Part shown: positions 717 to 29,320 of the stretch, piece after piece | Numbering within the stretch: the first letter of the stretch is position 1 | How the letters are laid out: each line of letters opens with the position of its first letter | Source of the DNA: Candidatus Saccharimonadota bacterium | GTDB taxonomy: Bacteria > Patescibacteriota > Gracilibacteria > BD1-5 > UBA6164 | Direction of reading: 5' to 3' | Length of the DNA: 32,000 nucleotides | Assembly: GCA_963677765.1 (NCBI GenBank) | Contig: OY782392.1 | Location: forward strand, 270,001 to 302,000 | Notes under the pieces: model-generated | Database searches by the model: none | What the model was told of the DNA's origin: nothing | The model's input: only the letters and a program-made list of their open reading frames with translations | Translations under genes and position numbers: made by a program

Positions 717-745
717 AAAAGCAGAATTTATAAATTCTGCTTTTT
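717..745. terminator. Bidirectional intrinsic terminator (A-tract, GCAGAATT/AATTCTGC hairpin, T-tract)
   Basis: aaaa-gcagaatttataaattctgc-ttttt. The stop of mini-gene A (746-744) abuts the T-tract. Confidence 0.7.
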
Positions 746-920
746 AGCTAACGACAGGTTGTCCTGCAACTGGTTTTTTACCAAAGTCTTTAACAAAAGT
801 TTCAACTGACATATCACAAGTAGATTCACCACCATGTGCATCTGATTTTGCAACAACAACTCTACCGAAAGAAACACTTTTTACTTTATACCCATAATAT
901 GGTTTATTTGCTTTGAGCAT
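744..920 (-). CDS. Mini-gene A: uncharacterised 58-aa protein, SD-led and TGA-free
   Basis: ATG 920-918 and TAA 746-744. Product: MLKANKPYYGYKVKSVSFGRVVVAKSDAHGGESTCDMSVETFVKDFGKKPVAGQPVVS. AAGGAG lies 5 nt upstream, with a consensus promoter and its own terminator. All 6 Gly are GGN. Below the size cut-off of the ORF track. Confidence 0.65.
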   Translation of the reverse strand: MLKANKPYYGYKVKSVSFGRVVVAKSDAHGGESTCDMSVETFVKDFGKKPVAGQPVVS

Positions 921-925
921 AAAAA

Positions 926-931
926 CTCCTT
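926..931 (-). promoter_or_regulatory. Shine-Dalgarno AAGGAG for mini-gene A
   Basis: Plus-strand ctcctt equals AAGGAG on the minus strand, with a 5-nt spacer to ATG 920-918. Confidence 0.6.
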
Positions 932-941
932 TTATTTTTTT

Positions 942-957
942 TGTACAATAATGTACA
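942..957. promoter_or_regulatory. Operator-like element TGTACA-N4-TGTACA in the leader of mini-gene A
   Basis: tgtacaataatgtaca: two palindromic hexamers 4 bp apart. It starts 5 nt downstream of the -10 box, overlapping the expected transcription start. Confidence 0.4.
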
Positions 958-962
958 CATAT

Positions 963-991
963 ATTATAAATAATTTTTATTTTTAAGTCAA
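963..991 (-). promoter_or_regulatory. Sigma70-type promoter of mini-gene A
   Basis: On the minus strand: TTGACT (991-986), 17-nt spacer, TATAAT (968-963). Confidence 0.6.
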
Positions 992-993
992 AT

Positions 994-1020
994 AAAAAGA
1001 AGCTTTAAAAGCCTCTTTTT
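994..1020 (-). terminator. Candidate terminator downstream of ftsZ
   Basis: Minus-strand AGAGGC-uuuuaaa-GCUUCU (one mismatch) followed by UUUUU, just after the ftsZ stop. Confidence 0.45.
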
Positions 1021-1026
1021 ATAAAA

Positions 1027-2214
1027 TTACATTTTTTTTCTTAAAAAACTTGGAACATCTAAATCATCTTCTGGTTTAGGAGTAGCTGGAGTTTGAGGAG
1101 CAGAAGGTGTAACTCTAGAATCAGTTACAGGTTTTCTACCAAATGGATTTGTTTTTAATGGTCTACTAGATTCTCAAGCATATTGATTATTTGATTCTTC
1201 ATCAAATCAAGTTGCTACTACAGTAATTTTTAATTCACCATTATATTCTTCATTGATAGTTGCACCAAATATAATATTAGCATCAGAATCAACAGTTTCA
1301 GTAATAATTTTAGCAGCTTCATCAACTTCAAACATTGATAAATCAGTACCTCAAGTAATATTAAATAACAATCATTTAGCTCAAGCTATAGAAAGTTCTA
1401 ATAATGGAGAGTCTATAGCTGATCTAGCAGCTTCAGTAGCTCTATTTTCACCACTACCATAACCTATACCCATTAATGCAGAACCAGCATTTTGCATAAC
1501 AGAAGTAACATCAGCGAAGTCAACATTAATTAAACCTGGTTGAGTAATTAAGTCAGAAACACCTTGTACTCATTGATTTAAAATTTCATCTACTATTGAG
1601 AATGCATCTAATAATGGAGTTTTTTTATCAATAATTGATAAAATTTTATCATTAGGAATTGTTATAAGAGTATCAACTTTTTCTTTTAAATTAGTAAATC
1701 AATCTAAAGATTTACTCATTCTATTTTGTCATTCAAAACTAAATGGTTTTGTAACTATTCATACAGTTAAAGCTCATAATTCTTTTGCAACTTCAGCAAC
1801 AACTGGAGCAGCTCAAGTACCAGTACCTCAACCTAAACCACAAGTAATAAAAATCATATCTGCTCCTTCTAGAGTAGATTTAATTTCTTCTCTTGATTCT
1901 TCTGCAGCTTTTTTACCAATTTCTGGATTAGCTCAAGCTCATAATCAATTTGTTATAATTTTTCAGATATTTAATTTAGTTGGAGCTAAAGAATTATATA
2001 AAGCTTGAGTATCAGTATTAATAGAAACAAATTCTACTCATTCTAAACCTCATTCTATCATTCTATTAACAGCATTTTGCCCAGCTCAACCTACTCATAC
2101 AACTTTTATTTTTGCAACTGGTGATATTGTATTGTTTAATTTAATTTCTTGAGGACCTGTATCTTGGTTACCTCATAAAAGATTTTTTAATTTATCTTCT
2201 CTTCTAGTAGTCAT
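1027..2214 (-). CDS. ftsZ: Cell division GTPase FtsZ
   Basis: 396 codons are open with TGA=Gly. Tubulin signature [37 protein letters not shown], with two of its Gly encoded by TGA (rc of 1828-1830 and 1813-1815). Also NVDFADV and the C-terminal tail [16 protein letters not shown] at 1029-1027. Confidence 0.97.
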
Positions 2215-2243
2215 AATATTTTTTTATTTGTTAGATATAAAAT

Positions 2244-3479
2244 TTAAGGTAGTAATTTTTTGAATAATTTTTTTAGAGATTCTATAAATCAAGCAATATT
2301 TATAGAAAACATTGGTCAGTTATTTCAATACATATTTGAAAATATCATTGTTCAAATAACTGCAGAGAAAACTGGATCTGATATTGAAGCATCAACTAAG
2401 TCATCTTGTGATACAGGTAATCCTATAAAAACAGGTAATCTTAATCATTTTTTAGCTGACTCTACAAATCATTTCATTTTTGAAGCTCATCATACACATA
2501 CAGCTCATTCTGGAAGCATACCATCTTTTCAGATTTTTTTAAGTTCTTCCCTAACAAAATGAAATATCTCTTCATATCTAGCAGTAACTATTTTTGATAA
2601 ATATTCTCTAGAAACTACTCATTCTTCTCACATATTTAATTCTGAAAGATCAAATTCACTATCTGTAAATCAATCTCTATTTTCTAAATCAAGTTCAGCA
2701 TATTCAAGTTTGATTTTTTCTGCAACTCAAGTAGATGTTCTCAATCATAATGCTATATCATTTGTAACATTATCTCATCAAATAGGAATTATAGTTGAAA
2801 AATGTAATACTCAATTTTCATAAACTGTTATTCATGTAGTAGATGCTCAAATATCTATACAAACAACTCCTAACTCTTTTTGTCTTTTAGTTAAAACTCA
2901 TTCAGGACTTGATAATAGATTTGGATAGATATCATATATTTCAATACCTATATCACTAACTGCCTTTTTAATATTTGTTAAAACATTTAGATTCATAGAA
3001 AAAATATTAGCAACAACTTCTAATTTTCTAGCAGTCATTCATACAGGATTTTTAATTCATTCTTCTAAATCAACAACAAAGTTTTCAGGAACTACTTTTA
3101 GTATTTCTTTATTTGGCATATCAACTCAGCTTTTTGCTTTATCTAAGGCTCTTTCTATATCTTCTTCTGAAACTTCTGAACCTGAAATAGATATAATACC
3201 TTTACTTCTTATAACCTCAAAACTTGAAGAGTTAAATGAAACATAAGCTCATGAAACATGTTCTCAAGCCATTTTTTCAGCTTCTTCTAGTGATGAATCT
3301 AGATTTTTTTTGAATTCTTCCATATCAAGTATATTTCATTTTCTCATTGCTGTAGAACTTGAAATACCAACACCTAATATATTAAAGTCGTCATTTCTTT
3401 CTTTATCAAAATATCATATAATAGTTCTAATTTTAGAACTTCATATATCTATTGTAGTTATCGTGTTAGATGATCACAT
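2244..3479 (-). CDS. ftsA: Cell division protein FtsA
   Basis: MGSSNTITTIDIGSSKIRTIIGYF (actin-fold phosphate-1), VCIDIGASTTGITVYENG, GGDNVTNDIALGL and GAVCVGGASKMKGF. 412 codons. Ends 29 nt upstream of ftsZ. Confidence 0.93.
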
Positions 3480-3767
3480 TATAAATTACATTAAAAAATA
3501 TATTGTTCAATTTTTTTATACAGATTTTTTGGCTTAAAACCAAGATTTATTTATTTATTACCTATGTTTAGGTCCTATAAATTATATTTAGCAATATATC
3601 TTTATCAAAACAAGTTAATTAATTAATGTTAAAAAGTAGTTTTTTAACTTATAAATTAGTAGAAATAGTGTTTATTGAAATTAATTTAGTCTTTTTTTGC
3701 TTTTTATAAAAATATATATTATCATTATATTAGTTTTTAAAATAATTTATTATACAATTAATAAAAT

Positions 3768-4967
3768 ATGAAGTCATTTTATACAATATTTCAGGCAGTT
3801 CTATTTTTGATTCTGATAAGTAATTCAGTGGCTTTTTTCTTGTTCCCAAAAATTATAAAAAATGTATCTGATATTAACCAATTAGTTATATTTATACTTA
3901 TATCAGTTATATACTTTTTAGTTATAATGATGTTAATAAATAGATACTTCCACAATCCCATAAAACAATTAGAATTAACTATAAAAAAATTTTTAGTCTG
4001 AAATCTAAAAGAAAGCAAAATAACATTTGAAAAATCAGATAACTCTCACATAAACTATATAACAAGTTTCTTCTCTAAGACACTAAATACTTTAAAAAAT
4101 ATTAAAGATGAATTCATACATGGTAAAGAAATAAAATGAGAAGTAGAATTAGGTAAAGAAATTCAATGAAAAATGCTAAAAAAGAAACTACCTGATGTTC
4201 CTAGCCTAGAAGTAGTAGCAAAATCAAAACCTGCATGAGAAATTGGTTGAGATAGTTTTGATATAATACAACAAGATGATAATTATTATATTTATGTTTG
4301 AGATGCTACATGACATGGTGTTTGAGCATGATTTATAATGATAATGGTAAATGCATTAGTTAGTTGATTTTCAAAAGTATACAAATCTTGATCATTGATA
4401 TTATCAAAAACAAATGAGATAATTAAACCTAGAGTAAAAGCAAATTTACTTATGAGTATGCTTTTAGTAAGATGGAATGAAAAAGAAAAAAGATTATTCA
4501 TGACTTGAGCATGACATGAATATTTGATGATTTACAAACACAAATTAGGAAAAACATTTAGAATAAAATCATGATGAGTAGCTATTTGAATGATTAGAGA
4601 TTCAAGCAAATTATTAAAAGATAAAGAAATAAGTTTTGAGCCAGGAGATATAGCTGTTTTATACTCTGATTGAATAACAGAAGCTATAAATAGACCTGCT
4701 AGAGATTGAACTGAACAAATATTTTGAGAAGATAGATTAGAAGAAACAATAAATAAGGCTCCTAATGTACCATGAAAAGAATACAAATCTGCTAGAAGTG
4801 TTTTCAACGAAATAACAAAAAGTTTATCAAAATTTATGTGATATAAACATATACAATTAGATGATGTTACTTTGGCTGTTATACAATATAAACCAGACTG
4901 ATATAATAAAGAACAAGATTTTAGTGATGAAATACCAAAAGATTTTATTACTGAATGGAATTGGTAA
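3768..4967 (+). CDS. Membrane-anchored PP2C-type (SpoIIE/RsbU family) serine phosphatase
   Basis: Two N-terminal hydrophobic segments. PP2C motifs: AGEIGGDSFDI, YIYVGDATGHGVGAGFIM, VLYSDGITEA and DDVTLAVIQY. 400 codons, ending EWNW-TAA (TGG used for Trp). Confidence 0.85.
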
Positions 4968-4997
4968 AAACTAGATTTTTAAAAATCTAGTTTTTTA
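4967..4997 (+). terminator. Intrinsic terminator after the phosphatase gene
   Basis: aaaaactagattttt/aaaaatctagtttttt palindrome with T-tract. Confidence 0.75.
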
Positions 4998-5018
4998 TTT
5001 AAATTATAATTTTAAAAG

Positions 5019-5060
5019 TGTAAAGTCAGTATTAAACATCTATCTTTACATTTTTTTTTT
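5019..5060 (+). terminator. Second hairpin plus T10 run (back-up terminator or 3' end of a short RNA)
   Basis: tgtaaag (5019-5025) pairs with ctttaca (5044-5050), followed by 10 T. The 18-nt loop makes it weaker. Confidence 0.35.
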
Positions 5061-5105
5061 AATAACTAAAATAAAACAAAATATTATATATTTACTTTTA
5101 TCATA

Positions 5106-6956
5106 GTGGACAAACAAGAAAAAATAATAAACCTTGTGAAACAAAGAATTACTTGAGATACTTACTGATATAACAAAATAAAAAAAGATGAAAAATCTAC
5201 TAAAAAAGTAGATGAATCTAAAGAGTTATTAGAGTCAGAAAAAGAATATAAAGCTGCCCTTGCTTATATAAAAGACATAATATCTCCTGCTTTTATGAAA
5301 GTTAGTCAAGATAGAGTTAAGATAAATAATACTATAGCAAAAACATTTTTCATATATGCTTACCCAAATTTTTTAGAATGAAACTGGCTATCTCCAATCA
5401 TAAATTGGGATATTAAGTTTGATATGAGTCTTTTTGTCTACCCTATTGAATCTGCTTTTGTTCAAAAGTATTTGAAAAAGAGATTAACTCAACTTTATTC
5501 TGAAAGAAGTATTAATGCTGAAAAAGGTTTATTAAATGACCCTGCAATTGAAGCTCAAATACAAGATGTAGAAGAACTTAGACAAAAATTAACTAGATGA
5601 ATAGAAAAGTATTTTCACCTATGACTATATATAACTATATATGGAGAAAGTGATGAACAAATAGATAAAGTCTGAAAAGATGTTGAAACAATATTAGCAG
5701 GTAGAAATGTACTACAAAAACAAGCATTTTTAAGAAGTGAACAATGATTTATTTCTACTGGTCCTTTTTGTAAAGATGAGTTATGAGTATACAGAAATAT
5801 TTCTACATGATGACTATCAACTACATTTCCATTTTCTTCAAGTACTCTAAGTCATGATGATTGAATTCTTTATTGAATAAATACTCACAATAATTCACTT
5901 ATTATATTTGATAGATTCAAAACTGAAAATGCAAATATGACAGTATTTGCTAAATCTGGTTGAGGTAAATCTTTTGCTGTAAAACTAGAAATACTTAGAA
6001 GTTTGATGTTTTGAACTGATGTAATTGTAATAGATCCTGAAAACGAATATAAAACACTTATAGAAAAAGTATGAGGTAGTTATTTAGATGTTTCACTAAA
6101 TTCAAATCAAAGAATTAATCCTTTTGACTTACCATTATGATTAAAAGACCAAGATGAAAAACCTTGAGATTTATTAAGAAGTGCTGTTATAAATCTTTTA
6201 TGACTTATGAATTTAATGCTTGGTAAAATGTCAGCTGAAGAAGCTTCTATAATGGAAAAAGCAATAATAACAACATATAGTTTAAAAGGAATAACTCTTG
6301 ATGATGATGATATTATTGGAAAAGATATTCCTACTATGAAAGATCTACAAGATGTTTTAGAAACAATGGATTGAGCATCAGGACTAGTAAAAAGAATGGA
6401 AAAATATACTATAGGTATATTTAGTTGAATTTTTTCTCAAAAAACAAATGTAGATTTATGAGAATGATTACAAGTATTCTCTGTTAGAGATCTTGATGAT
6501 ATGATGAGACCTATAGCCATGTATGTTATACTTAATCATATATGGAATAAAGTTAGATCTAGTAATAAAAAAAGATTATTAGTTGTAGATGAAGCTTGGA
6601 ATGTTATGCAACATGAAGATTCTGCTAAGTTCTTATTTTGATTAGTTAAAAGAGCTAGAAAATATAACTTATGAATTACAACTATTACTCAAGATGTTGA
6701 AGATTTCGTATGAAGTCCTTATGGTAAACCAATTATGACCAATTCTTCAGTACAATTATTATTAAAACAATCTAGTGCTTCTATTGATGTACTTCAAAAT
6801 ATATATAAATTAACAGAGCAAGAAAAATATATACTACTAAATGCAGCAGTATGACAATGATTATTTTTTGCCTGAACTGAACATGTATGAATACAGGTTG
6901 TAGCAAGTTATTATGAATCTCAAGTTATAGACACAAACCCAAATACAAAAAGATAG
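5106..6956 (+). CDS. VirB4/TraC-like (AAA-like, DUF87-type) secretion ATPase
   Basis: Walker A FAKSGGGKSFAVK (middle Gly is TGA 5961-5963), Walker B RLLVVDEAWNVM, then GITTITQDVEDF. The N-region LSPIINWDIKFDMSLFVYP is typical of CPR VirB4-like proteins. The frame opens at 5070. The first plausible start is GTG 5106, so the start is uncertain. TAG at 6954-6956. Confidence 0.8.
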
Positions 6957-6976
6957 ATTTTTTCTATCTTTTTTTG
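6947..6976 (+). terminator. Intrinsic terminator
   Basis: aaaa-agataga-ttttt-tctatct-ttttttt. Confidence 0.7.
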
Positions 6977-7033
6977 TTTTATAAAATTAGATATGTTAAG
7001 ATGAAAGTATATTATAAATATAACAAATAAAAA

Positions 7034-8275
7034 ATGTCTAAAACACTAGTCTTTTTTAAAAGACTTGAAGTACAGGTAGTAAGTGCATTAATTTTAGCAA
7101 TTATATTTTGAATTAATTTTCCTCAATTTGTTGAATATATATCATGGATGTGAGATGCATTTATGAAATTATTAAAATCAATGCTTTGACCTCTATTATT
7201 TTTATCAGTTACTGTTGCCGTTTTATGATTATGAGATTTCAAAAAATTATGAAACATATGAGCAAGAACATTTATATACTATATGGCTACAACTACAATA
7301 GCTATAACTGTATCTCTAATTTTGATGAACATATTCAAACCTTGAAAATGAGTAGAATTTTGATTTGAGGAATGATTTAATTCTGCATGAGTAGAAGCAC
7401 TAAGTTTTTGAGGTTTTATTCAATGAATTATTCCTGAAAATATAATTGAATCATTTGTAAACTTTAATGCTATGCAAATAGTAGTAATGTGAATAATATT
7501 ATGAATAGCTATTTTAGCAACTAAAAAAAGTAGCCAAATTGATGCAGTAGAAAAGGTCTTTAAATGAATAAATGATTGAATTTTAAAATTTATAGAATTT
7601 GTTATTAAACTTACTCCCCTTTGAGTTTTTGCTATAGTATCAGTTGTAGTAAAAGAAAACTGAGTTGAATCAATGATAAACTTAATGCCTTTTGTATTAG
7701 TTATATTAGCAGCATTATTTATACATGCTTTTATATCTTTACCTTTGTTATGACATTTTATAGGAAAATTTAATCCTTATAAATATTTATTACAAGTAAA
7801 AGAAGCAATATTAGTTTGATTTTCAACTGCATCAAGTAGTGCAACAATGTGATTGTCTATGAGTGTAGCAAAAAATAAAGCCGAATTAAGCGAAGAAGTA
7901 GTAAATTTTACATTTCCCATATGAACTACTGTAAATATGGATTGAACAGCATTATACCAAGCATGAGTAGCTATATTTGTAGCTCAAGTTTTATGAATTG
8001 ATATGAGTATAATGCAACAAATAACAATAACTGCTATAGTAATACTTGCTTCTGTTTGAGCTGCATGAATTCCTTGAGCATGAATATTAATATTAACAAC
8101 TGTATTTTTAAGTGTTTGACTTCCAGTTGAAGCAATTATGATAATACTAGCTGTTGATAGAGTTTTAGATATGTTTAGAACTGCTGTAAATGTATGGTGA
8201 GACTTATTAACTGCAAAAGTAGTAGATACATATTATAAATCACAAAAAACAATATTTGAAAAAGTAAAATTATAA
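7034..8275 (+). CDS. Dicarboxylate/amino acid:cation symporter (DAACS, GltP/DctA/SstT-like)
   Basis: FSTASSSATMG, NMDGTALYQ, SVGAAGIPGAGILIL and AVDRVLDMFRTAVNVWGD. 414 codons with many TGA=Gly. Confidence 0.9.
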
Positions 8276-8307
8276 AAAAAGATGAAATAAATTTCATCTT
8301 TTTATTT
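8274..8307. terminator. Bidirectional terminator shared by the convergent symporter and DUF1846 genes
   Basis: aaaaaaa-gatgaaa-taaa-tttcatc-tttttatttt. The DUF1846 stop (8304-8302) lies in the T-tract. Confidence 0.7.
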
Positions 8308-9354
8308 TAATCTAGATTTTAATTTATTACATCTTTCTAACCATATATTTGAACCATTTCATCTATCTATTATTTTTTTATACCAATTTATTCTTCTATC
8401 TATTTCCTCTATTGAAGCTTTTTTTACTATTTCTTCATCCAAAATACAAAATCAAGCAGTATTAATTCACATATCAGTTGGTGATTTATATTTATTAGTA
8501 AAATTTGTTTCTTCTAAAAATTCAACTGATAATTTTTTTACTATATCAAAAGCTTCAATATCTCTATTATAATTAACACTCAGCATTTTATATGCATCTT
8601 TATGATAACTATCTATAACATTATAATCTCATATATCAGCTGTTGCTGCTTCATAAGCCAAATTAACTGGATGATCAAGTGGCAAATTCCAAATTGGGAA
8701 AGTTTCATATTTAGCATATCAAGAATCTTTTCAATCAATAGTTTCTAGATATATTTGTCATAAACAAGTAGACATTTTTCAACTAGAACTTGCAGCTCAA
8801 GTTACTAATACTATATCTTTATTTACCGGTATATAATCATCTCTTCAATAACCCAAATCAGATAAAACATATTTAACATCATTTGGATATCATTTTATAT
8901 CAAATCTAAAATATGAATTATATCATTTTTGTTTTAATAATTTAGAAAAATCTTTTACATAAGATAAGTTATCATCATTAACCCTATTTATAGAAATATA
9001 TGAAATTATTCATAATTGATTCTTTATATCATCAATCATTGATAAACAATAATCATTATAACTTATATCATCACTTGATAATTGCCTATTTAATTTTAAA
9101 TCAATAGCATTTATACAAAAAATAACATCAGCTTTTTCTTTTATTTTTGAGAAAATTCTTTTTTTAGAATCTGGAAAAAATCATGGTAAGACTCTTGATG
9201 CATGTGGATCATATAAAAACTTTCAACCTATTTCTAAATATAGTCTATTTTCAAATTTTTCCATCCTATCCAAAATAGAATTTGATTGCATATCTATATA
9301 TTTATATCAATCAAATCATACTTTATCATAAGTAATTATATCATTTGTGCTCAT
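8302..9354 (-). CDS. DUF1846 (UPF0371) family protein, short form
   Basis: [83 protein letters not shown] and SPTDMGINTAGF match my memory of Firmicute UPF0371 proteins. 350 aa. Confidence 0.85.
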
Positions 9355-9421
9355 TAAATTATTAATTATTTTATATTCATTTATATTTTAACATAAATAA
9401 AAATAATTGTATAAATTAAAC

Positions 9422-9449
9422 TTGATTTATTTAATATTTTTTATATAAT
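9422..9449 (+). promoter_or_regulatory. Candidate promoter for rplK
   Basis: TTGATT (9422-9427), 16-nt spacer, TATAAT (9444-9449). This implies a 5' leader of about 145 nt. Confidence 0.45.
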
Positions 9450-11447: not shown

Positions 11448-11522
11448 GCTCCTATCGTCTAGTGGCTAGGACGCGACCCTCTCACGGTCGAGACAGGGGT
11501 TCAATTCCCCTTAGGAGTACCA
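11448..11522 (+). tRNA. tRNA-Glu (anticodon CUC), CCA encoded
   Basis: Acceptor GCTCCTA/TAGGAGT. D-arm TCGTCTAGTGGCTAGGAC is as in bacterial tRNA-Glu. Anticodon stem-loop CGACC-CT-CTC-AC-GGTCG. T-arm AGGGG-TTCAATT-CCCCT, then discriminator A plus CCA. Confidence 0.9.
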
Positions 11523-11532: not shown

Positions 11533-11568
11533 AAAAAAACCACTACTTTTAAAAGTAGTGGTTTTTTA
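11533..11568 (+). terminator. Intrinsic terminator after the tRNA; copy 1 of a duplicated hairpin element
   Basis: aaaaaaac-cactac-ttttaaaa-gtagtg-gtttttta. 11541-11568 is identical to 13153-13180. Confidence 0.8.
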
Positions 11569-13143: not shown

Positions 13144-13180
13144 AAAAAAAAACACTACTTTTAAAAGTAGTGGTTTTTTA
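13144..13180. terminator. Bidirectional terminator; copy 2 of the duplicated hairpin element
   Basis: aaaaaaaaa-cactac-ttttaaaa-gtagtg-gtttttta. The stop of the convergent membrane-protein gene (13180-13178) lies in its T-tract. Confidence 0.8.
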
Positions 13181-19624: not shown

Positions 19625-20611
19625 ATGAAAAAAATAATTTTAAGTTTAATTGCCTTAATATTTCTTAGTTCTTGTACACAACAAGCAAAAATAGAAGATA
19701 ATAATAAAGAAGTCGAAAATAAAAAAATAAATATAACTACTTCTATAATCCCTTTAGCTTCAATTTCAAACTATATAGGTTGAGATTATGTAAATGCTAG
19801 TTCTCTAGTTCCAGTTTGAGTAAGTGCACATTGATATGATATGAAAGCTAATCAAATGGTTCAAATACAAGATTCTGATTTAATAGTATATTTATGATTA
19901 GAACACATAGATTGATTTTTAGAAAAAGCTTTAAATGAAAATAATAATTATATTAAAGTAGCTGAATGAATTAATCTTATAGAATGAGAAGAACATAATC
20001 ATGAACATGAAGAAGAAAGTCATGAAAATGATGAAGAACATCATGATGAAGAACATGAAGATGAACATAGTGAAGAAAATCATGAAGAAGAATCTCATAC
20101 AATAGATCCACATGTATGGACAAGCTCAAAAAATGCTATATTAATAGCTCAAAAAATAACAAATGAACTTGTTAATATAGACTCTAAAAATGCTGATTAC
20201 TATAAAAGTAATTTAGATAATTTTACTAATGAATTAGATACTATAAAAAATGATTTCATTCAAAAAAATAAAGATTTAAATCAAAAAGAATTTATTATAT
20301 TTCATGATGCTTATAATTACTTATTTGAAGAATTATCTATAAAACAAGAAAATAAAATCATATTTCAATCAAATGTTTTAAGTGATCCAAATTCAAAAGA
20401 AATGAAAGAATTAGTTGATGAAATAAATTTACATTGAATAAATATAGCATATAAAGAACCTCAACTAAATGATAGTAATTTACAAATGCTTGCAAATGAA
20501 TATAATATAAGAGTTGAAGTATTAAATCCCCTATGAGATGATGAGTCAAAAGATTGATATATAAACAACTATAAAAATAACCTAGAAAATTTAAAATATA
20601 TTTATGAGTAA
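19625..20611 (+). CDS. znuA: Zinc ABC transporter substrate-binding lipoprotein ZnuA with His/Glu-rich loop
   Basis: Lipobox LIFLSSC, plus DPHVWTS and FHDAYNYL. The acidic/His loop EEHNHEHEEESHENDEEHHDEEHEDEHSEENHEEESH is encoded at about 19983-20100. Confidence 0.9.
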
Positions 20612-21347
20612 AGATAAATCAAAACAAGAAATACTAAAACTAGAAAAAATAAATTTATCATATAACAATAAAAAAACTTATGTCTTAAAAGACATAAGTT
20701 TTTCAGTGTTTTCTTGAGAAATATTAAGTATTATTTGAGTTAATTGAGCTTGAAAGTCTTCCCTATTAAAAATAATAGCTTGAATTCAAAAGCAAAATTC
20801 TTGAAAAATTATAAAAAACTATAAAAAATTATCTTATGTTCCTCAAAAAATAAGTATAGATAAGAGTTTCCCTATCTTGGTATCTGAGTTTATAAAAATA
20901 TATAATATCTGAGTAAAAAAAGATGAAATAAAAAAACTATTAATTGAGTTTGATGCAGAAGATTTATTTGATAAAAAAATATGAGATTTAAGTTGATGAC
21001 AATTACAAAAAATTTTAATAATATCTGCTCTTATTTCTTCTCCAGATATTATATTACTAGATGAACCTACAGCATGAATAGATATAATTTGAGAAGAAAC
21101 TTTTTATAAAATAATAAAAAATGTACAAGAAAAATACCCTAAATTATCTATAATACTTGTATCTCATAATATAAAACTAGTTTATAAAAACAGTGATAAA
21201 GTTATATGTCTACATGAAAATAATTTTTGCTGCCACTGAACACCATTAGAGGTATCGTCAAATAAAATAACAGAAAGTTTATTTTGAAAATATACTCTTC
21301 CCTATAAACATAATCCACATAATAAAAATAATCATAAAAATATATAA
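20604..21347 (+). CDS. znuC: Zinc ABC transporter ATPase
   Basis: Walker A GVNGAGKSS (Gly from TGA at 20736-38, 20745-47, 20751-53), signature LSGGQLQK and Walker B ILLDEPTAGID. The start ATGAGTAA overlaps the znuA stop by 8 nt. Confidence 0.92.
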
Positions 21348-21350
21348 AAT

Positions 21351-22154
21351 ATGTTAGAAATATTACAATATAGTTTCTTTCAAAATGCTATAATATGATG
21401 AATACTAATTTCATTAATTGCTAGTATACTATGAACTTTCATAGTTATGAGAAAAGAAGCAAACATAACACATTCAATAGCAAATTTTTTATTTTTGGGT
21501 ATAGCAATATCATTATTGCTATCAGCTAATTATTATTTGTTAGCATTTATATTTGCAATTATAGCTAGTTTAATAATTTTTTTCATTGAAAAAACTAACT
21601 TTATATCAAAAGAATCTACAAAAGAAATAATATCTCAAGCATGAATAGCATGATGAATATTTACTACTTGATTTATATGAAACTTAAGCCTAGATATAAA
21701 TAACTTCTTATTTTGATCTATTTTGTTTATAAATAAAACTGATATAGTATTTTTAATAATATTTACAATTATTTGTTATATATTATTTTTTATATTTAAA
21801 GAAAAGTTTTTAAGCATAATAATAAACGAAGATATAGCTAAGTCTAAATGAATAAAAGTAGATTTATATAACTTATTATTTTTAATATTTTTATCATTAT
21901 TTATATCAATAAGTATAAAAATATTTTGAATATTATTAATTGGAGCATTCTTAATAATACCAGCAAATACTGCAAAACTAATATCTCCTAATTTAAAATA
22001 TGTATTTATAATCTCTATAATTATTTCTTTAATATCAGTTATAATTTGATTATATAGTTCATATTTATTAGAAACTTCTTCTTGAGCAACTATAGTATTA
22101 ATTTTATTACTATTTTTTATAACTTCTCTAATAATAAAAAACACTAGAAATTAA
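21351..22154 (+). CDS. znuB: Zinc ABC transporter permease (ABC-3 family)
   Basis: 267-aa polytopic protein with LIGAFLIIPANTAKL. Begins 3 nt after znuC. Confidence 0.88.
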
Positions 22155-22170
22155 ATTCTAGTGTTTTTTA
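22137..22170. terminator. Bidirectional terminator between znuB and a convergent secreted-protein gene
   Basis: aaaa-acactagaa-attaaa-ttctagtgt-ttttta. The znuB stop is in the loop. Confidence 0.75.
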
Positions 22171-23076
22171 TTATTTAAGTAATGCATCTATAATATCATA
22201 AGCTCTAATACTTTGTATTTGATTTTTAACTGCTGAATTTAAACTATTCAATAATTGTGTAGTTTCAGTTAATGCTTGATATTTATCAAGATTTTTTTCA
22301 AAATCTGATTCTTTATTTATAGAGTTTAATAATGTTTCCATAGTATCATTATTTTTTTCTATAGATGATTTTATTCTAGAGTCAGCTTTGTTTAATATTT
22401 TTTTATATTGTTCTCTTGATAATTTATCTCAAAATTCTAATAAATAATCTTCCAATTTTGAAGTATTATAATAACCATAATATCTGTCAGGATTATTTTT
22501 TGATAACAAGTTAGATAAAGTTCATCTTTTATTATTTATATCAATATATACTGGATTAGATAAAACCATTTTTGTAGCATCTTTCATATCAGCCATTAAA
22601 GTAATTGAAACTCATACATAATCATCATCTCAAAAATTTTTAACTAAATCTTTATTTTGAAATAAATATTCATCTTTAGATTCTGTAAAATCTACAATTT
22701 TATAATTATAAACATCTTTTACTTCACTAGAACCTCACTTTCAAGAAAGCATAGAATCTTCCATATAAAAAATTCTAGATCATTCTTCAACTAAAAAATA
22801 AATTTTATTTGATTCATTTTTTATATCCTCTGGAATAACTATATTCTCTGCCTTAATTTTTGAAGTATAATAATTTATATTATTATATTCATAATCAGAT
22901 TCAATTTTATTATTTCTAATAATTAATTTATTTTCATCTGATAAATCAGTTTTTTCAACACTTGTAGTAATATCATTACTTATAGGCATAATTTCCATAT
23001 AATCAGCTCATGCAAAAGATATTGAAGGGACAACTATCAAAGCAGAAGCTAAACTAGTAAGTATTATTTTTTTCAT
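22171..23076 (-). CDS. Orphan secreted protein (301 aa)
   Basis: Signal peptide MKKIILTSLASALIVVPSISFA|GA. 302 codons are open with TGA=Gly. The C-terminal third looks helical. No recognised family. Confidence 0.7.
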
Positions 23077-23132
23077 AATAAAAAAATTAATAAATTAAAA
23101 TACACTATTTAAAACGATATTATATTAAAAAA

Positions 23133-23175
23133 GTGACATAATTTAATTGACATATATAATTAATTATTTTATAAT
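23133..23175 (+). promoter_or_regulatory. Tandem consensus promoters of mini-gene B
   Basis: P1: GTGACA (23133-38), 16-nt spacer, TATAAT (23155-60). P2: TTGACA (23147-52), 17-nt spacer, TATAAT (23170-75). TGACATA is directly repeated 14 nt apart. Confidence 0.6.
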
Positions 23176-23203
23176 AATAAAAGCTAGTATTATAACAAAT
23201 GAT

Positions 23204-23209
23204 AGGAGG
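23204..23209 (+). promoter_or_regulatory. Shine-Dalgarno AGGAGG for mini-gene B
   Basis: AGGAGG followed by a 6-nt spacer to ATG 23216. Confidence 0.65.
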
Positions 23210-23215
23210 TGTAAT

Positions 23216-23416
23216 ATGAGCTGGGAAAAAATGGTACATAAACCTAATGGTAAATATGTAAAATTAAAGGTTGGTTTTGGTAATAAAATCTACTTGGATG
23301 GCTCTGAAACTGGCTATAAAGTTGGAGGAGACAACAAAATTTATACAACTGCCGGGACTTATGTATCAAACGATAATGTAGAAAATTTTTGTAGGTCACA
23401 AGGGCTTATAAAGTAA
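23216..23416 (+). CDS. Mini-gene B: uncharacterised 66-aa Gly/Lys/Tyr-repeat protein, SD-led and TGA-free
   Basis: MSWEKMVHKPNGKYVKLKVGFGNKIYLDGSETGYKVGGDNKIYTTAGTYVSNDNVENFCRSQGLIK. All 9 Gly are GGN, including GGC and GGG. Trp is TGG. The ORF-track start at 23147 is the TTG of the -35 box. Confidence 0.7.
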   Translation: MSWEKMVHKPNGKYVKLKVGFGNKIYLDGSETGYKVGGDNKIYTTAGTYVSNDNVENFCRSQGLIK

Positions 23417-23427
23417 TTTTCTACAAA

Positions 23428-23460
23428 CAAAAAAAACTCAAGATTTACTTGAGTTTTTTA
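23428..23460. terminator. Bidirectional terminator shared by mini-gene B and convergent copA
   Basis: aaaaaaaa-ctcaag-attta-cttgag-tttttta. The copA stop (23460-23458) is in the T-tract. Confidence 0.75.
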
Positions 23461-25593
23461 TTTAAAGTTTTTAAGTCTAAGACTATTAGCTAATACACTA
23501 ACACTACTCATAGCCATAGCAAAACTTGCGAATATAGGATTAAGTAATCAAAATGCAGCTAAAGGAATACATACAGAGTTATATAAAAATGCCCAAAATA
23601 AGTTCTGCTTAATAGTTAACAAAGTTTTTTTAGATAAAATTATAGAACTATAAACCTTATCTAAATCTCATTTAACTAATACTATATCACTTGACTCAAT
23701 TGCTACATCACTTCAAGTTCACATTGCAATTGATAAATCTGCTTGAACCAATGCTGGAGCATCATTTATTCAATCTCAAACAAAAGCTACTTTTCTATTG
23801 TTTTTTTGATATTCTTTTATATAAAATAATTTATCTTCTGGCATTACCTCCGATATAACTGTATCAATTCATATAGATTTAGCTATGTAGTTAGCAGTAT
23901 TTTTTGTATCCCCTGTCAACATAACTGTTTTTATTCAATTTGAATGAAGACTATTTATAGTTTTTTCAACTCATGCTTTAGCTAAATCCAATAATGCTAA
24001 TATTCAATATATTTCTTGATTAGTTCCGATTATTATTGGAGTTTTTCATTCTAAAGTTAATTTATCAATAAATTTTTCAACCTTAAAATCCAAACTTGGA
24101 AATAATTTTCTATTTCATAATAATATAGTTGTTCATTGATATTCAGCTTTTATTCATTTTCATTTTATTTCTTCAAAATTATTTAAATCGAATTTAGAAA
24201 TATTACTAGCATATGAAGAAATCGATTTAGATAATGGATGGTGAGATAAATCAGATAATGAAACTCAATACTTTAATATTTCATCCTTTGTTTTAGATAC
24301 TTCAATTATATCTGTAAGCTCTGGTTTTCAATTGGTAAGTGTCCCCGTTTTATCAAAAAATATAACATCAACTTTTGAAGTTTTTTCTAAAGTAGCCGCA
24401 TTTTTTATTAGTATTCATGACTTTGCTCATCTTCAAGTTCATACCATTATTGCTGCTGGAGTTGCAAGTCATAAAGCACAAGGACAAGCGATAACCAAAG
24501 TAGCGACAGCAGGAACAATAGAGGTTTCAATACTTCATGTTATATAATACCATGAAATAAATGTAACTATGGATATTAATATAATAATAGGAACAAATAT
24601 TCATGATACTTTATCAGCAACTTTTTCAATTGGAGCCTTAGAGCTTTGAGCTTCTTCTACCATTTTTATAATATTTGAAAGAGTTGAGTTTTCATTTGTT
24701 TCAGTTACCTTTATATTCAAGCTTCAATCATTATTTATAGTTGCTCAAAAACATTTATCTCAGATTTCTTTATAAACAGGAATACTTTCTCAAGTTAACA
24801 TTGATTCATCAACATTAGCAGATCATTTTATAACTTCACCATCTAAAGCAATCTTTTCTCATGATCTAACTACCAAAATATCTCATACTTTTATATCATC
24901 TATATCCTTTTCAACTATACTTCAATTTATATCTATATATGCTTTTTTAGTTCAAAGTTGTAATAGTTTTGATATAGAATCTCATGCTTTAGATTTTGCT
25001 TTATGCTCTAAATATTTTCATAAATTAATAAGAGTTATAATGGCAACAGCAGCTTCAAAATAGACATGTTTATCATAAAACATAGCAACTGATGAATATG
25101 AAAAGGCACTAAATGTTCATAAAGAAACTAAACTATCCATATTAAAATGAAATTTTAATAAAGAAGAAAAAGCACTTTTATGAAAATGAAATCAAAATCA
25201 AAAAACTACAATAAAAGAAAGTATAAAATATATATACATTAATATATCTACACCCAAAAACTCTATTCATATCATAAAGTTTCAAAACATCATTGAGAAT
25301 ACAGGAATAGAAAACAATGCCGAAAATAAAAATCTATTAAATATTTTTTTATTTTGAGACTCTTTATTTTTATCACTTATTTCGATATTTTCTTCTATAG
25401 AAAATCAATTTGATTCTATTATTTTTTTTATATCAGAAAAAGATATTTCTGATTGCGAATACTCAATACTAGCAGTATTAGTTGCTAAATTTATTTTTAC
25501 TTGGTTTATTCAATTAGTATTTAACAAACTTTTTTCATTTAAAACAACACAGCTAGCACAAGTCATTCATTTTATTATAAATTTTTTATGCAT
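23458..25593 (-). CDS. copA: Copper-translocating P1B-type ATPase
   Basis: N-terminal HMA domain KGMTCASC, TM6 CPC (VIACPCALGLATP), DKTGTLT, and GDGINDAP (both Gly are TGA, rc of 23776-78 and 23770-72). Also MLTGD. 711 aa. Confidence 0.95.
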
Positions 25594-25598
25594 ATTAA

Positions 25599-26942
25599 TT
25601 ATTTAATTATAATTTGTCACTGTGTCATTCACATACTAGCACAAACCATACTATATTTTCATGGTTTAGCATCATATATTTCATAAACTATAGGCTCTCA
25701 TGCTTTTACTTGATGTATTTCTGTAGAAATTCAAGGTAAAACCAAAGTAGACATACATCAAAGACCATTTGATGTAGGCATTATAGTTATTTTATAGTTT
25801 CATCATGCTTCTAGTTCAACTATTGCTGGACTTGTTTGATATCAGTTATGCTTAACAAAAACTTCTTCTAAGCTAACATTTTCTTTTTTATCTCATGATG
25901 CATTTAATAAATCTTGTACTTCTGAAGAGCTATTAGTACTAGAGTTAAAAGGATTAAAATCAATAAATTTTATTAAATTATAAGAATTAATTAATGTGAA
26001 AATTCAGAAAAATACTACTATAGATCAAAGTATTTTTGTAAGTATGGTAAATTTTTTTCATTTAAAATAACTAGATCAAAGTCAAAGTGCCAAAAATACT
26101 GGAGTTGTTCATAATGCAAAAAGGAACATAACTAATCATCCTTGCCAAAAACTTCAACTTGATATAGCTAATAGTTGCATAGTTTGAGTAAATCAACAAG
26201 GTAAGAAAAATGTTAAAGCTCAAACTATAGGTGCAAATTTTGGATGTCAAAAAGATTCTATTTTCTCAGTAAATCATTTAGGCATATGAATTCAATACTT
26301 TGTTATACTTGGAACAATTCCCAAGATATTTAATCACATATAAAAAAGTAAAAAACCTACTAAAAATGTTATAATAGAATTTATAGTAAAGTTTATACTA
26401 AAAAATGAACCAAAATATCATAAAATTCAACCAAAAATAAAAAAACCTAATAGTCTTCATATTTGAAATGAAGTTTGAACTTTTAAATGACCTAAAAATC
26501 AATGTCATTTATCTAAATATCTAGAAAAACCTACTATTATTCATCAAGTTATAGCCAAACATGTAGAAACAGAAGCTATAAGTCATATAATAATTGCACT
26601 AAAATAATTTATACTAGAAGTATCAGGAATAATACTATATATATCAAATAATTTTGAAGATATTAAAAGAATAATAACAAATAAAAATGCTATTATATTT
26701 CATAATATATTATCCAATGAAACTTCTTGTTTTTTGTCAGTTTCTAATACACTAAAATTATTTTTTTCTATAATTTTTACTAATTCTTTATATTTAGATT
26801 CATCTAAGTACTCTACTTCCATAATCCCCTTCTTATAACTTAGCATAAGAAGTTTTACTCATTCTAAATTTTTTATTTCTCTATCTAAAATAGTTTCACA
26901 ACTTATACAATGCATTCATTTAATCTGTATCTTTTTTTTCAT
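25599..26942 (-). CDS. HMA domain / DsbD_2 (UreH-TauE-like) membrane domain / C-terminal cupredoxin-like domain fusion protein
   Basis: IKGMHCISCETILDREI (HMA). Polytopic core with STCLAITGG and FFLPCGFTQTMQLLAISSGS. C-terminus YKITIMPTSNGLGCMSTLVLPGI...AKPGKYSMVCASMGMTQG. Its stop lies 5 nt before the copA ATG. Confidence 0.82.
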
Positions 26943-26985
26943 TTATTTTTTATTAAAAACTAAGAATTATTAAAATTAAATAATT

Positions 26986-27387
26986 TTAAGTATTAGATTT
27001 AATGATTCAGATCAAAGATATATAGTTATATTCAATATTTTTTTCTTCTAAAAATTTACCTGGAGGAGATATATTTGATAAAAAATTATTTTTTTCTATT
27101 TTTTTTGAAATATTATCCAAATCTATAAAACTAATAATAAATTTTTTATATTTTTTTTCTTGATTTAAACTATTAGGTGATACTATTAAGAATTCGTTAT
27201 CACAACAAATTTTTACAAAATCTTTGGCAAATTTTTTATCACAAAAATGATCTAAATTATTTCATAAATCAGTTGAATAAGTTAAATTATATTTTTCTTC
27301 ATCATTAAAAGATGCCATAACTTGGTTATGACAAAAATTAATAAAAAAAATAGCAAGAAATAAAAATAATGAAATAATTTTTTTCAA
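26986..27387 (-). CDS. Small secreted Cys/His-containing protein (133 aa)
   Basis: A TTG start gives the signal peptide MKKIISLFLFLAIFFINFCHNQVMA|SF. No in-frame ATG exists before the stop-bounded 5' limit. Contains HFCD and ICCD. No recognised family. Confidence 0.55.
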
Positions 27388-27451
27388 AATATATTATTAA
27401 TATTTAAATTCAAAATAATATTATATAGTAATCATAAAAAATCAATAATTT

Positions 27452-28657
27452 TTACTTTCTAATTCATAACTTAGAACTAAATCATTTTCATATAAGATCC
27501 ATTCAAAAACAAATTTTATGACTATTATATTTTTTGTTTATAGAGTTAACCAATGTATATAGTCAATTATTCATATTATTTTCGTTTTTATAGTTTTCAA
27601 ATAATTGTATTTGATGAAAACTATTATTTTTTAAATCAGAAAATATTAATCAAGTACTTCTATATAAATTAGAACTATTATATGAAAAGTAAAAAAGTTG
27701 TTTTACTATCTCCAATAAAATTCTTCTATCACTTGTATGATAAGATAATTTCTTTTCAAAAAAATAAGTTTTTTTATCCAAATATCTATAAAATAAAATA
27801 ACTTTTTTTGTTTCATACTCTTTTATGATAAATTCTTCAAATAAATAGTTAAAATTTATAATAAGCTGTTTATATAAGAAGTCTTTATTATTTGTAATAT
27901 TTTTATTGAAACTTCTTCATCTACTAATTGATTTTGAAATCTTATTTTTTTTAACTACATAAGAATTAACTCAATTTAATTCTAACCATAAATCACAATA
28001 TGTTTTTCATAGATTATTTTTTATGTACCAAAAACCTAAAGATAAAAAATCATATATATTATCACACTTAAATTTTAATTTTTGAACACTTGCTTTTCAT
28101 ATAAATGGTACTTTAGATAAAGATAAGCTTTTATACAAATCATTATTAGTATCTATTTCTATAAAAATTCAATTAGGCTTATTTATTTCAGAAAAAATCT
28201 TAGATTTTATTCTAGTATTACTTACTCAAATACTAACAGGAATTCAAATATATTTTTTGATATCTTGTTGTAGTTTTTTAATATATTTATACAAACTAAG
28301 ATTATTTAATTCAGCTATTCAAGTTATTTCACAAAAAGCTTCATCTATAGAAAATTGTTCAACAGAAATAAGATTTTCCTCTAAATATGTCATTAATCTA
28401 GAAGATACTATACTATAATAATCATGATCAATATCTAAAAAAATAGCTCAAGATTTTAAAATTTCTTTTGCTTGCCAGACAGGTGTTCAGGTTTTAATAC
28501 CCAATGCTTTAGTTTTATAATTACACGCTAAAACTATTTCTTTTCAAACCAAAACATATTTATTTTTCAAACTAGGATTTCTTAATATCTCACACTCTGC
28601 AAAAAAACTATCACAATCTATATGAGCAAACAATTTATTTGATTTTTTAAACTTCAT
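27452..28657 (-). CDS. dinB: Y-family DNA polymerase IV
   Basis: FAHIDCDSFFAECEILRNPSLKNK, FSIDEAFCEITG, VSIGVSNTRIKSKIFSEINKPNG and SKVPFIGKASVQKL. 401 aa. Confidence 0.9.
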
Positions 28658-28713
28658 AATATTATATATACAATATATATACTATATTATATATTTTTTA
28701 AAAACAAATACAA

Positions 28714-28741
28714 TAAAAAAAGACTATAATAGTCTTTTTTT
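28714..28741 (-). terminator. Intrinsic terminator downstream of the 89-aa membrane-protein gene
   Basis: aaaaaaa-agactat-aa-tagtct-tttttt palindrome. Confidence 0.65.
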
Positions 28742-29009
28742 ATATTTTGAAACCAAAAAATGTTTTCTTTTTTGTTTTAACATAAACATAATCCCACCAA
28801 TGCTCTGCTAATATATAACCACAAACTACAATATATACAGATAAAATAATTCTTTCTATATTTAAGTCTTGATTAAAATATGATAACACAAGATATGGAA
28901 AAACAGTAACCATGTATAATAAACAAATTACACATAAAAAATAAATAGCTTTTTTCAAATATAACATTTTTAAAAATTTAATTATAAAATATATAAATAA
29001 TTTTATCAT
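28740..29009 (-). CDS. Small membrane protein (89 aa), uncharacterised
   Basis: Standard-code ORF with a TAA stop. Contains 2-3 hydrophobic helices and a WW pair encoded by TGG TGG. Divergent from mini-gene C. Start choice is uncertain. Confidence 0.5.
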   Translation of the reverse strand: MIKLFIYFIIKFLKMLYLKKAIYFLCVICLLYMVTVFPYLVLSYFNQDLNIERIILSVYIVVCGYILAEHWWDYVYVKTKKKTFFGFKI

Positions 29010-29048
29010 ATAAAAAAATCAAAAGCAAAAAACAAAAAAAATAGAATA

Positions 29049-29075
29049 TTGACATTTGTGTTTTTTTATTATAAT
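29049..29075 (+). promoter_or_regulatory. Promoter of mini-gene C
   Basis: TTGACA (29049-54), 15-nt spacer, TATAAT (29070-75). Confidence 0.5.
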
Positions 29076-29079
29076 AAAA

Positions 29080-29102
29080 ATCTCTAAATTTAAATAAGAG
29101 AT
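29080..29102 (+). promoter_or_regulatory. Leader hairpin/dyad immediately upstream of the SD of mini-gene C
   Basis: ATCTCT (29080-85) and AGAGAT (29097-29102) flank the 11-nt loop aaatttaaata. Confidence 0.35.
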
Positions 29103-29105
29103 GAA

Positions 29106-29111
29106 AGGAGG
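29106..29111 (+). promoter_or_regulatory. Shine-Dalgarno AGGAGG for mini-gene C
   Basis: AGGAGG followed by a 4-nt spacer to ATG 29116. An in-frame ATG at 29101 has no SD. Confidence 0.55.
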
Positions 29112-29115
29112 ATTT

Positions 29116-29265
29116 ATGACAATATTATTATTGTTAAAAAAAATATTTGTTACAATAGCTTTTATGATTGCTTTTCTGAGTATAGGCATAGTCAGTGATG
29201 ACCAATATCAAAATGCTGTTATAACACCGGGTGATCAAATGATAATTGATTTTTTCAAGAAATAA
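29116..29265 (+). CDS. Mini-gene C: 49-aa single-pass membrane/secreted peptide, SD-led and TGA-free
   Basis: MTILLLLKKIFVTIAFMIAFLSIGIVSDDQYQNAVITPGDQMIIDFFKK. Uses GC-rich codons that are rare elsewhere (CTG, GGC, GTC, CCG). Has its own promoter and a strong terminator. Not in the ORF track because it is under 60 aa. Confidence 0.5.
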   Translation: MTILLLLKKIFVTIAFMIAFLSIGIVSDDQYQNAVITPGDQMIIDFFKK

Positions 29266-29277
29266 AATCACCTATAA

Positions 29278-29320
29278 ACTCAGTTATTATTAATTAATAT
29301 AATAATTGAGTTTTTGTTTT
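29278..29320 (+). terminator. Strong intrinsic terminator after mini-gene C
   Basis: 13-bp stem (29278-29290 pairs with 29299-29311, one G-U), 8-nt loop taattaat, then tttttgtttt. Confidence 0.75.

Follow-up and report, generated by a model that had tools for sequence, protein, structure and literature searches.

Three short genes of an uncultured member of the Gracilibacteria (Candidatus Saccharimonadota bacterium, contig OY782392.1, positions 270,001 to 302,000; this whole stretch of 32,000 nucleotides is referred to as the window, and positions are counted from its first letter) carry expression signals that are unique to them within the window. Each of these mini-genes, pep1, pep2 and pep3, possesses its own consensus promoter, a strong Shine-Dalgarno (SD) sequence and its own terminator, and has a coding body free of TGA, which this genome reads as glycine. 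In most relatives, the pep2 coding sequence is followed by TGA at the very position where the window has TAA. The explanation that we prefer, with a confidence that stays somewhat below even, is that the mini-genes encode native, very highly expressed small proteins whose translation is initiated by the SD route, and that the terminal UGA of the pep2 family is a special, possibly conditional stop. The elements of the three units are:

991 to 963, minus strand: pep1 promoter, with TTGACT (991-986), a 17-nt spacer and TATAAT (968-963); identical in the relative L009.
957 to 921, minus strand: pep1 5' untranslated region (5'UTR), with a 5' hairpin TGTACATTATTGTACA (957-942) and the SD AAGGAG (931-926), 5 nt from the ATG.
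920 to 744, minus strand: pep1, 58 codons plus TAA, no TGA, six Gly codons, all GGN; between ftsZ and nusA.
744 to 705, minus strand: pep1 terminator, with a 12-bp stem (744-717) followed by a T-tract; dG -12.8 kcal/mol.
23147 to 23175, plus strand: pep2 promoter, TTGACA, a 17-nt spacer and TATAAT; the sole 12/12 match in the window.
23182 to 23215, plus strand: pep2 5'UTR, with the SD AGGAGG (23204-23209), 6 nt from the ATG.
23216 to 23416, plus strand: pep2, 66 codons plus TAA, no TGA, nine Gly codons, all GGN.
23430 to 23461, both strands: terminator of pep2 and copA, A7-stem-loop-stem-T6, bidirectional; dG -12.2 kcal/mol.
29049 to 29075, plus strand: pep3 promoter, TTGACA, a 15-nt spacer and TATAAT; conserved in the relative L010.
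29082 to 29115, plus strand: pep3 5'UTR, with the SD AAGGAGG (29105-29111), 4 nt from the ATG.
29116 to 29265, plus strand: pep3, 49 codons plus TAA, no TGA, two Gly codons; N-terminal helix hydrophobic, C-terminal YQNAVITPGDQMIIDFF conserved.
29276 to 29320, plus strand: pep3 terminator, a 15-bp AT-rich stem followed by TTTTTGTTTTG; dG -14.6 kcal/mol.

The window has a GC content of 22.8% and belongs to a Gracilibacteria-type genome in which TGA is read as Gly. Long open reading frames (ORFs) emerge only when TGA is treated as a sense codon, and TGA must encode Gly for the FtsZ motif GGGTGTGAAP and the GDGINDAPAL motif of the copper ATPase CopA to be intact, so that the code is that of translation table 25. 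As the ordinary gene set we used 27 long genes together with the 5' part of nusA, which gives 28 start sites. In the 27 long ORFs, in-frame TGA supplies 493 of 615 Gly codons (80%) and GGC none. The relatives that were retrieved are annotated as Candidatus Gracilibacteria metagenome-assembled genomes, have a GC content of 22-24% and are recoded likewise at TGA.

An earlier, sequence-only reading of this stretch had described three SD-led ORFs with consensus promoters and separate terminators, and positions, SDs, promoters and terminators were all recovered exactly as first given. When both strands of the 32 kb were scanned for TTGAC[AT]-N15-18-TATAAT, exactly three matches were returned, one upstream of each mini-gene, with spacers of 17, 17 and 15 nt; 100 shuffled versions of the window, used as control, gave a mean of 0.47 matches, and none of them reached three. 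A hairpin with a T-tract follows each mini-gene; that of pep3, with three G-C pairs and no run of five Ts in the tail window, was missed by a simple scan and found by folding.

SD strength was expressed as the duplex energy with CACCUCCUUA, the standard anti-SD sequence, which is assumed for this genome. The duplexes of pep1, pep2 and pep3 reach -8.2, -14.0 and -11.6 kcal/mol, while none of the 28 ordinary starts is as strong as -3.3 kcal/mol, in agreement with the earlier statement that the longer genes lack an SD. The further statement that only three places in the window have a strong SD holds for starts that pair with the anti-SD, but not for the motif as such: AGGAG-N3-8-ATG has six matches (2.1 expected), the three extra ones being located inside long genes at chance level, among them an AAGGAG-5-ATG that lies in frame within ftsZ at 1868 on the minus strand. 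Ordinary starts are nearly free of G; 17 of the 28 have none at positions -22 to -1, suggesting that SD-like sequence is actively avoided and that initiation takes place on unstructured A/T-rich leaders. The 28 ordinary start regions also pair with the anti-SD more weakly than random positions do.

SD and promoter are conserved in every relative examined, with the exception of the pep2 promoter in a few loci. TTGACA-17-TATAAT is kept upstream of pep2 in L001-L006 and L014; the spacer is 19 nt in L008/L016, the sequence available for L012 ends short of this region, and L015 shows no consensus. The SD itself, as GGAGG or GGAG, is conserved in 15 of 15 pep2-family loci examined. The 5' hairpin and SD of pep1 are retained in L009, and according to the predicted folds AGCT in the pep2 5'UTR can pair with AGCT right after the ATG, and an upstream CTCT in the pep3 5'UTR can pair with the SD. 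In L010, the pep3 SD is AAGGAG, 5 nt from the ATG, and the upstream in-frame ATG used by the P0012 (NCBI/ENA) gene model is missing, which identifies the SD-led ATG as the pep3 start.

None of the 17 Gly codons of the three mini-genes is TGA, and this absence, already reported from the sequence alone, was borne out: if TGA were used as often as in bulk genes, its probability would be 1e-12; at the usage of ftsZ and rplK combined it is 9e-5, and at that of rplK alone 0.017. Across the pep2 orthologues (n = 11), TGA encodes 0 of 104 Gly codons, compared to 67-92% in neighbouring genes. The GC content at third codon positions (GC3) of these orthologues is 0.32 versus 0.10, and the C-ending fraction of two-fold codons, NNC/(NNC+NNT), amounts to 0.38 in pep2 orthologues and 0.34 in rplK, as opposed to about 0.09 in bulk genes. 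Codon bias in the mini-genes thus resembles that of rplK and not that of bulk genes. GGC provides 3 of 17 Gly codons of the mini-genes as against 0 of 615 in ordinary genes. The mini-genes had also been described as GC islands, but their GC content is modest (0.35, 0.33 and 0.26) and no higher than that of rplK (0.32) or ftsZ (0.30). The same bias appears in rplK, with 3 TGA among 14 Gly codons, and in the relative L001, where a cold-shock gene has TGA for 0 of 8 Gly codons and lacks an SD; for this reason we attribute the TGA-free bodies to expression-linked codon bias. Internal TGA avoidance looks like the extreme of an ordinary codon choice and needs no special explanation. The SD, on the other hand, does need one, being present in all 15 pep2-family loci read and in no ordinary gene.

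The mini-genes share the history of their neighbours. Compared with the closest relatives, synonymous divergence (dS) and the ratio of nonsynonymous to synonymous divergence (dN/dS) are 0.385 and 0.18 for pep1, 0.379 and 0.16 for pep2, and 0.366 and 0.48 for pep3, whereas flanking genes have dS values of 0.27-0.36 and dN/dS values of 0.06-0.17. These values show purifying selection, with somewhat faster protein evolution. The pep1 orthologue in L009 is 86% identical, occupies the same place between ftsZ and nusA and has kept its terminator. The pep3 orthologue is 69% identical, is likewise located in the same place, beside a SpoU methylase gene (L010, L011), and is most strongly conserved in the C-terminal 17 residues. 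No relatives of the mini-genes were found in phage, viral-contig or plasmid collections. Among the origins that had been proposed, the best supported is that of native small proteins made in abundance and initiated by a special route, given synteny, dS, dN/dS below 1, conserved SD and promoter, and rplK-like codons.

Homologues of pep2 were collected by a word-indexed search (9), from species-representative genomes (6 loci) and from metagenomes (6), and a pep2 profile run against 1.8 billion representative proteins gave 26 matches, of which 19 are small proteins. Among the contigs examined, the family is confined to TGA-recoded contigs of the Gracilibacteria type. The codon that aligns with the TAA of the window is TGA in all 10 other distinct pep2 orthologues, including the closest one (88% identity). 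It is located right after the last conserved residue (...SQGLIK), and the terminator follows 12-17 nt further on. Several homologues in databases continue past ...SQGLIK with W or G and then with junk, and their DNA shows TGA at this place; a tandem, unannotated pep2 paralogue in L001 (5306-5527; 73 codons, ~44% identical, with its own AAGGAGG and terminator) likewise ends in TGA. In 10-11 of these 19 small proteins, each the representative of one 50%-identity cluster, W directly follows the conserved core, and the underlying codon is probably TGA, while TAA or TAG follows it in five readable representatives (six loci). No member of the family has another sense codon after the core. On a neighbour-joining tree TGA comes out as the ancestral state, with at least six switches to TAA or TAG.

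Under table 25, the first in-frame TAA or TAG lies beyond the T-tract in 8 of 8 distinct TGA-bearing pep2 variants scanned, and the resulting ORFs would comprise 82 to 337 codons. The message of these relatives would thus be a non-stop mRNA under table 25, and the conserved pep2 product results only from reading the last TGA as a stop. Stops between TGA and terminator number 0 of 8 in frame, as compared to 4 of 16 for the two alternative frames combined, a difference that is not significant. Insertions and deletions in the spacer between TGA and hairpin have lengths other than multiples of 3; the tail is therefore not conserved as a peptide. Synonymous sites vary in each of the four codons that precede the terminal one. 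Within TGATT the T, the A and the two following Ts are invariant and the G is changed in the window only. Survival of this G in most lineages, at a GC3 of about 0.10, indicates that it is under selection. Apparently, the order of preference at the terminal codon is TGA, then TAA or TAG, with other sense codons far behind. A codon that simply meant Gly would be expected to wander among sense codons, and a simple stop to become TAA; the pattern matches neither. TGA at the stop position was found in none of 13 ordinary orthologue families. The pep3 orthologue has TGA at the position of the window's TAA, with an in-frame TAA four codons on. The mini-genes had been called code-neutral from the sequence, which applies to the window but not to relatives of two of the three genes.

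The one apparent exception among the ordinary families is copA of L002 (3224-6460, minus strand), where the copper ATPase ORF extends in frame past a single TGA into a domain of 369 residues, which starts with its own hydrophobic, signal-like segment; this is either a true fusion or a second gene-end TGA, and we have treated it as an in-frame domain fusion.

In the explanation that we prefer, each mini-gene would act as a self-contained high-output unit consisting of a sigma-70 promoter, a short structured 5'UTR, a strong SD, a UGA-free body and a terminator. The organism's own ribosomes would translate these messages through SD/anti-SD pairing, a route that the rest of the genome, with its A/T-only start regions, would have given up. 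The terminal codon of the pep2 family would be no ordinary Gly codon; it is UGA in most lineages and otherwise only UAA or UAG. In favour of this explanation, prfB is reported to be missing from BD1-5 genomes (PMC6851277), and loss of the anti-SD has been reported in a Parcubacteria subgroup only (PMC9297842). Several observations weigh against it. High expression is deduced from signals and codon bias, and the presence of the anti-SD at the 3' end of this genome's 16S rRNA is an assumption. The context found in pep2 relatives, TGA-TTT, is not avoided in ordinary genes (81 observed, 77 expected). The three genes of the window all end in TAA and therefore terminate normally here, with nothing conditional in this genome, and the non-stop logic fails for the pep3 relative, given its TAA four codons downstream.

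The closest mechanistic parallel is also an imperfect one. BrfA of B. subtilis and ArfA of E. coli are small proteins made from non-stop mRNAs with a terminator inside the ORF, and their product is tagged by transfer-messenger RNA (tmRNA) and accumulates only upon failure of trans-translation (PMC6881298). In both cases a small ORF (55-72 codons) runs into a hairpin or terminator before any stop, and pep2 relatives would have this layout under code 25. However, ArfA and BrfA both need release factor 2 (RF2), which is absent from this lineage (PMC6851277), making an RF2-dependent mechanism implausible. Furthermore, the first read-through codon of pep2 is specifically a conserved TGA, whereas the ArfA/BrfA design works with any sense codon and leaves the retention of TGA unexplained, and in the window pep2 ends in TAA ahead of its terminator. 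The predicted pep2 fold, a compact beta domain, is unlike ArfA and BrfA, which are extended basic peptides. No sequence match to ArfA or BrfA was found in Pfam, NCBIfam, PHROGs or PADLOC, with no direct pairwise comparison run. Similarity of pep2 to ArfA or BrfA in sequence or fold was not seen: pep2 has no match in Pfam, NCBIfam or PDB sequences, is predicted to form a six-strand beta domain with a helix, and gave nothing significant in Foldseek.

A bolder proposal, which we consider unlikely, is that UGA in code-25 Gracilibacteria is not purely a Gly codon but also a conditional terminator that ends a few SD-led, UGA-free messages. This may take the form of true context-dependent termination in a bacterium without RF2, or of a code-integrity switch. 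In the latter case, normal decoding of UGA may carry the ribosome into the terminator, so that the product is tagged and destroyed, and the mature protein may accumulate if the ribosome fails to decode UGA or takes it as a stop. Such a switch may be thrown where tRNA-Gly(UCA) is lost, where a phage imposes the standard code, or where the message is expressed in a cell that uses the standard code.

Conversely, the terminal TGA could be a harmless leftover, read as Gly and adding a junk tail that is left in place or removed, in genes that are just abundant small proteins. The genome of the window and six divergent relatives manage with TAA or TAG, the tail of the pep3 relative is 4 residues only, and since G-to-A is the commonest change under AT pressure, six of six outcomes of TAA or TAG are weakly expected (~0.01, our own estimate). 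A neutral G at a GC3 of about 0.10, however, should not persist in a family that has diverged to 35% identity, and the four preceding codons have all changed at synonymous sites with no other sense codon seen at the terminal position. Unless the mRNA is non-stop, tails of 16 to more than 270 residues would result, and ordinary gene families show no terminal TGA (0 of 13). We regard this explanation as improbable.

A third possibility is that UGA has a dual meaning, being Gly inside genes and a true terminator at the end of SD-led messages through an unknown factor or a special context. It would account for the finding that only TGA, TAA and TAG follow the conserved core and have interchanged at least six times, for the absence of TGA from 104 internal Gly codons together with its presence at the end, and for the immediate context, in which the next base is always T, the last residue is usually Lys and the tail is unconserved as a peptide. 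T at +4 is mildly depleted after sense TGA (20.2% vs 26.7% after GGN Gly codons), and ciliates provide a precedent (PMC4967479). In Condylostoma and Parduczia stops are context-dependent, and the pep2-family TGA, which lies 12-17 nt from a terminator and swaps with TAA or TAG only, is reminiscent of them; the ciliate system, however, is eukaryotic, genome-wide and dependent on the poly(A) tail, whereas one or two small families are concerned here, in bacteria without RF2. The gene for RF2, prfB, is reported to be absent from all BD1-5 genomes (PMC6851277), and our literature search turned up no bacterial precedent. The predicted context signal failed, with TGA-TTT not avoided inside ordinary genes, and equivalent stops under AT pressure should be mostly TAA, whereas TGA predominates. 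We judge a dual meaning to be distinctly improbable. In the long ORFs of the window and 12 loci, the depletion of T at +4 has a z of about 2.8, and the codons most depleted after sense TGA are the Ser codons TCT (13 vs 35 expected) and TCA (13 vs 32 expected).

That the mini-genes are cassettes for expression in a standard-code host or prey cell, with a terminal TGA that blocks the proper product in the producer, is very unlikely. In relatives the conserved product does arise only under table 11, the promoter, SD and terminator are textbook bacterial signals, unique to the mini-genes in the window, and the ranking of TGA over TAA over sense codons fits a gene that is silent in self and active elsewhere. 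The genes, however, occupy separate, conserved places in the chromosome; the called neighbours include no transfer genes, the flanks read show no evident repeats or borders (no dedicated repeat search was made), and standard-code genomes, phages and plasmids yielded no relatives. Their codons follow the organism's own style for high expression and are very AT-rich, the three genes of the window end in TAA, so that the producer would make the products, and no means by which such symbionts could pass DNA or mRNA into a host is known to us. Recent acquisition from a standard-code bacterium or phage, the second origin that had been proposed, can be rejected: it finds some support in the higher GC3 of the mini-genes and in codons such as GGC that bulk genes never use, but gene order is kept between genomes, the neighbours have the same dS, dN/dS is below 1, every family contig examined is TGA-recoded, there were no phage, viral-contig or plasmid matches, and codon bias matches rplK of the same genome.

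The functional identity of the three peptides was addressed by comparison with known families and systems. Scans against Pfam, NCBIfam, PHROGs and PADLOC gave no significant match for any of them, and the best two PHROGs matches of pep3 had an E value of only about 0.2. A profile comparison of pep1 with pep2 gave a probability of 1.4% and thus no detectable homology. In Flavobacterium johnsoniae, rpsU (bS21) is reportedly a rare SD-led gene in an SD-avoiding Bacteroidetes genome. The likeness lies in a genome that is nearly free of SDs, although the anti-SD would be retained, and in which very few small genes keep a strong one, making privileged or self-regulated translation possible. The mini-gene peptides were rejected as bS21, since none of the three matches in Pfam or NCBIfam; bS21 is reported to be often missing in Gracilibacteria (PMC9297842). 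Leader peptides of transcription attenuation were discarded in view of dN/dS values of 0.16-0.48, the confident fold of pep2 and the convergent orientation of the genes downstream of pep2. A selenoprotein UGA with a selenocysteine insertion sequence (SECIS) was rejected as well, the hairpins being ordinary terminators with T-tracts in which the loops (ATTTA, TTCG, AAA, ATG and others) and the spacing (12-17 nt) vary. Similarity to type I toxins or small membrane peptides is seen for pep3 only, a 49-residue peptide with a single hydrophobic helix, whose gene has a strong SD and, in the 5'UTR, a segment able to pair with that SD; the difference is that the conserved part of pep3 is the soluble C-terminal 17 residues, with a dN/dS of 0.48.

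AlphaFold models were obtained for pep1 and pep2. The pep1 model (predicted local distance difference test, pLDDT, of 86) consists of three strands and one helix, and a Foldseek search of the PDB gave no match at E < 0.1. For pep2 (pLDDT 95), six strands and a C-terminal helix are predicted, and again no match at E < 0.1 was found in the PDB and BFVD. The two best but insignificant pep2 matches, both with a template modelling (TM) score of about 0.5, were a sialidase blade and the Streptomyces tyrosinase 'caddie'; the latter, a copper chaperone, would suit the position of pep2 beside copper genes, but pep2 has no conserved metal ligands and we place no weight on this match. Among PDB sequences the family profile had a sole, marginal match, YdcD (8wj5), at E = 0.021. 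The profile also matches 4-7 repeats in P0025 and P0030-P0033 (300-1329 aa, without Pfam domains; P0037, which has a Pfam match, is left out of this set), and the motif common to pep2 and these repeat proteins resembles D-K-(L/I)-Y-x-x-S-G-x-F. Perhaps the beta hairpin of pep2 is one such repeat unit standing on its own.

In the relatives with downstream genes listed (L001, L002 and L012), pep2 is convergent with the copA/multicopper-oxidase operon, and flanking metal-transport genes in common at other close pep2 loci point the same way. Divergent members (L019/L020 919-1119 and L022 780-974) are located directly upstream of a prepilin peptidase gene and not beside copper genes. In the window, the copA stop codon (23458-23460, minus strand) falls inside the T/A tract of the terminator in common with pep2, and no 3'UTR separates the two convergent genes.

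Further regulatory elements were noted elsewhere in the window. The nusA leader (580-700, minus strand) contains a TTGCAA-N15-TATAAT promoter followed by a GC-rich hairpin with a U-tract (dG -23.9 kcal/mol, z -4.6). Identity to L009 is 100% here, although synonymous sites differ by about 30%, and the element looks like a leader terminator or attenuator ahead of nusA. Two terminators about 1.6 kb apart, at 11534-11567 and 13153-13172, have an identical 20-nt core CACTACTTTTAAAAGTAGTG; the first comes after tRNA-Glu(CTC) (11448-11522), and the second separates two convergent genes. In an Rfam scan of the window the tRNA-Glu gene alone passed the thresholds, and around pep1 the only match was below threshold, at 24.6 bits against a cut-off of 90.

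Bacteria using code 25 are treated as examples of a clean UGA-to-Gly reassignment, which in this window is accompanied by SD-free initiation. The very small class of SD-led genes provides a natural handle on initiation in these uncultured symbionts, in which the anti-SD appears to be retained for a handful of messages. Annotation of pep2 relatives under table 25 adds 16 to 270 junk-tail residues, which several database entries (P0002-P0010) carry, while pep2 itself represents a new, confidently folded small-protein family that, in the contigs examined, occurs only in TGA-recoded Gracilibacteria-type genomes. The standard-code-like terminal codon of this family is the new and most interesting fact, and its pattern allows metaproteomes and metatranscriptomes to be used for testing a stop-like or regulatory role of UGA after reassignment.

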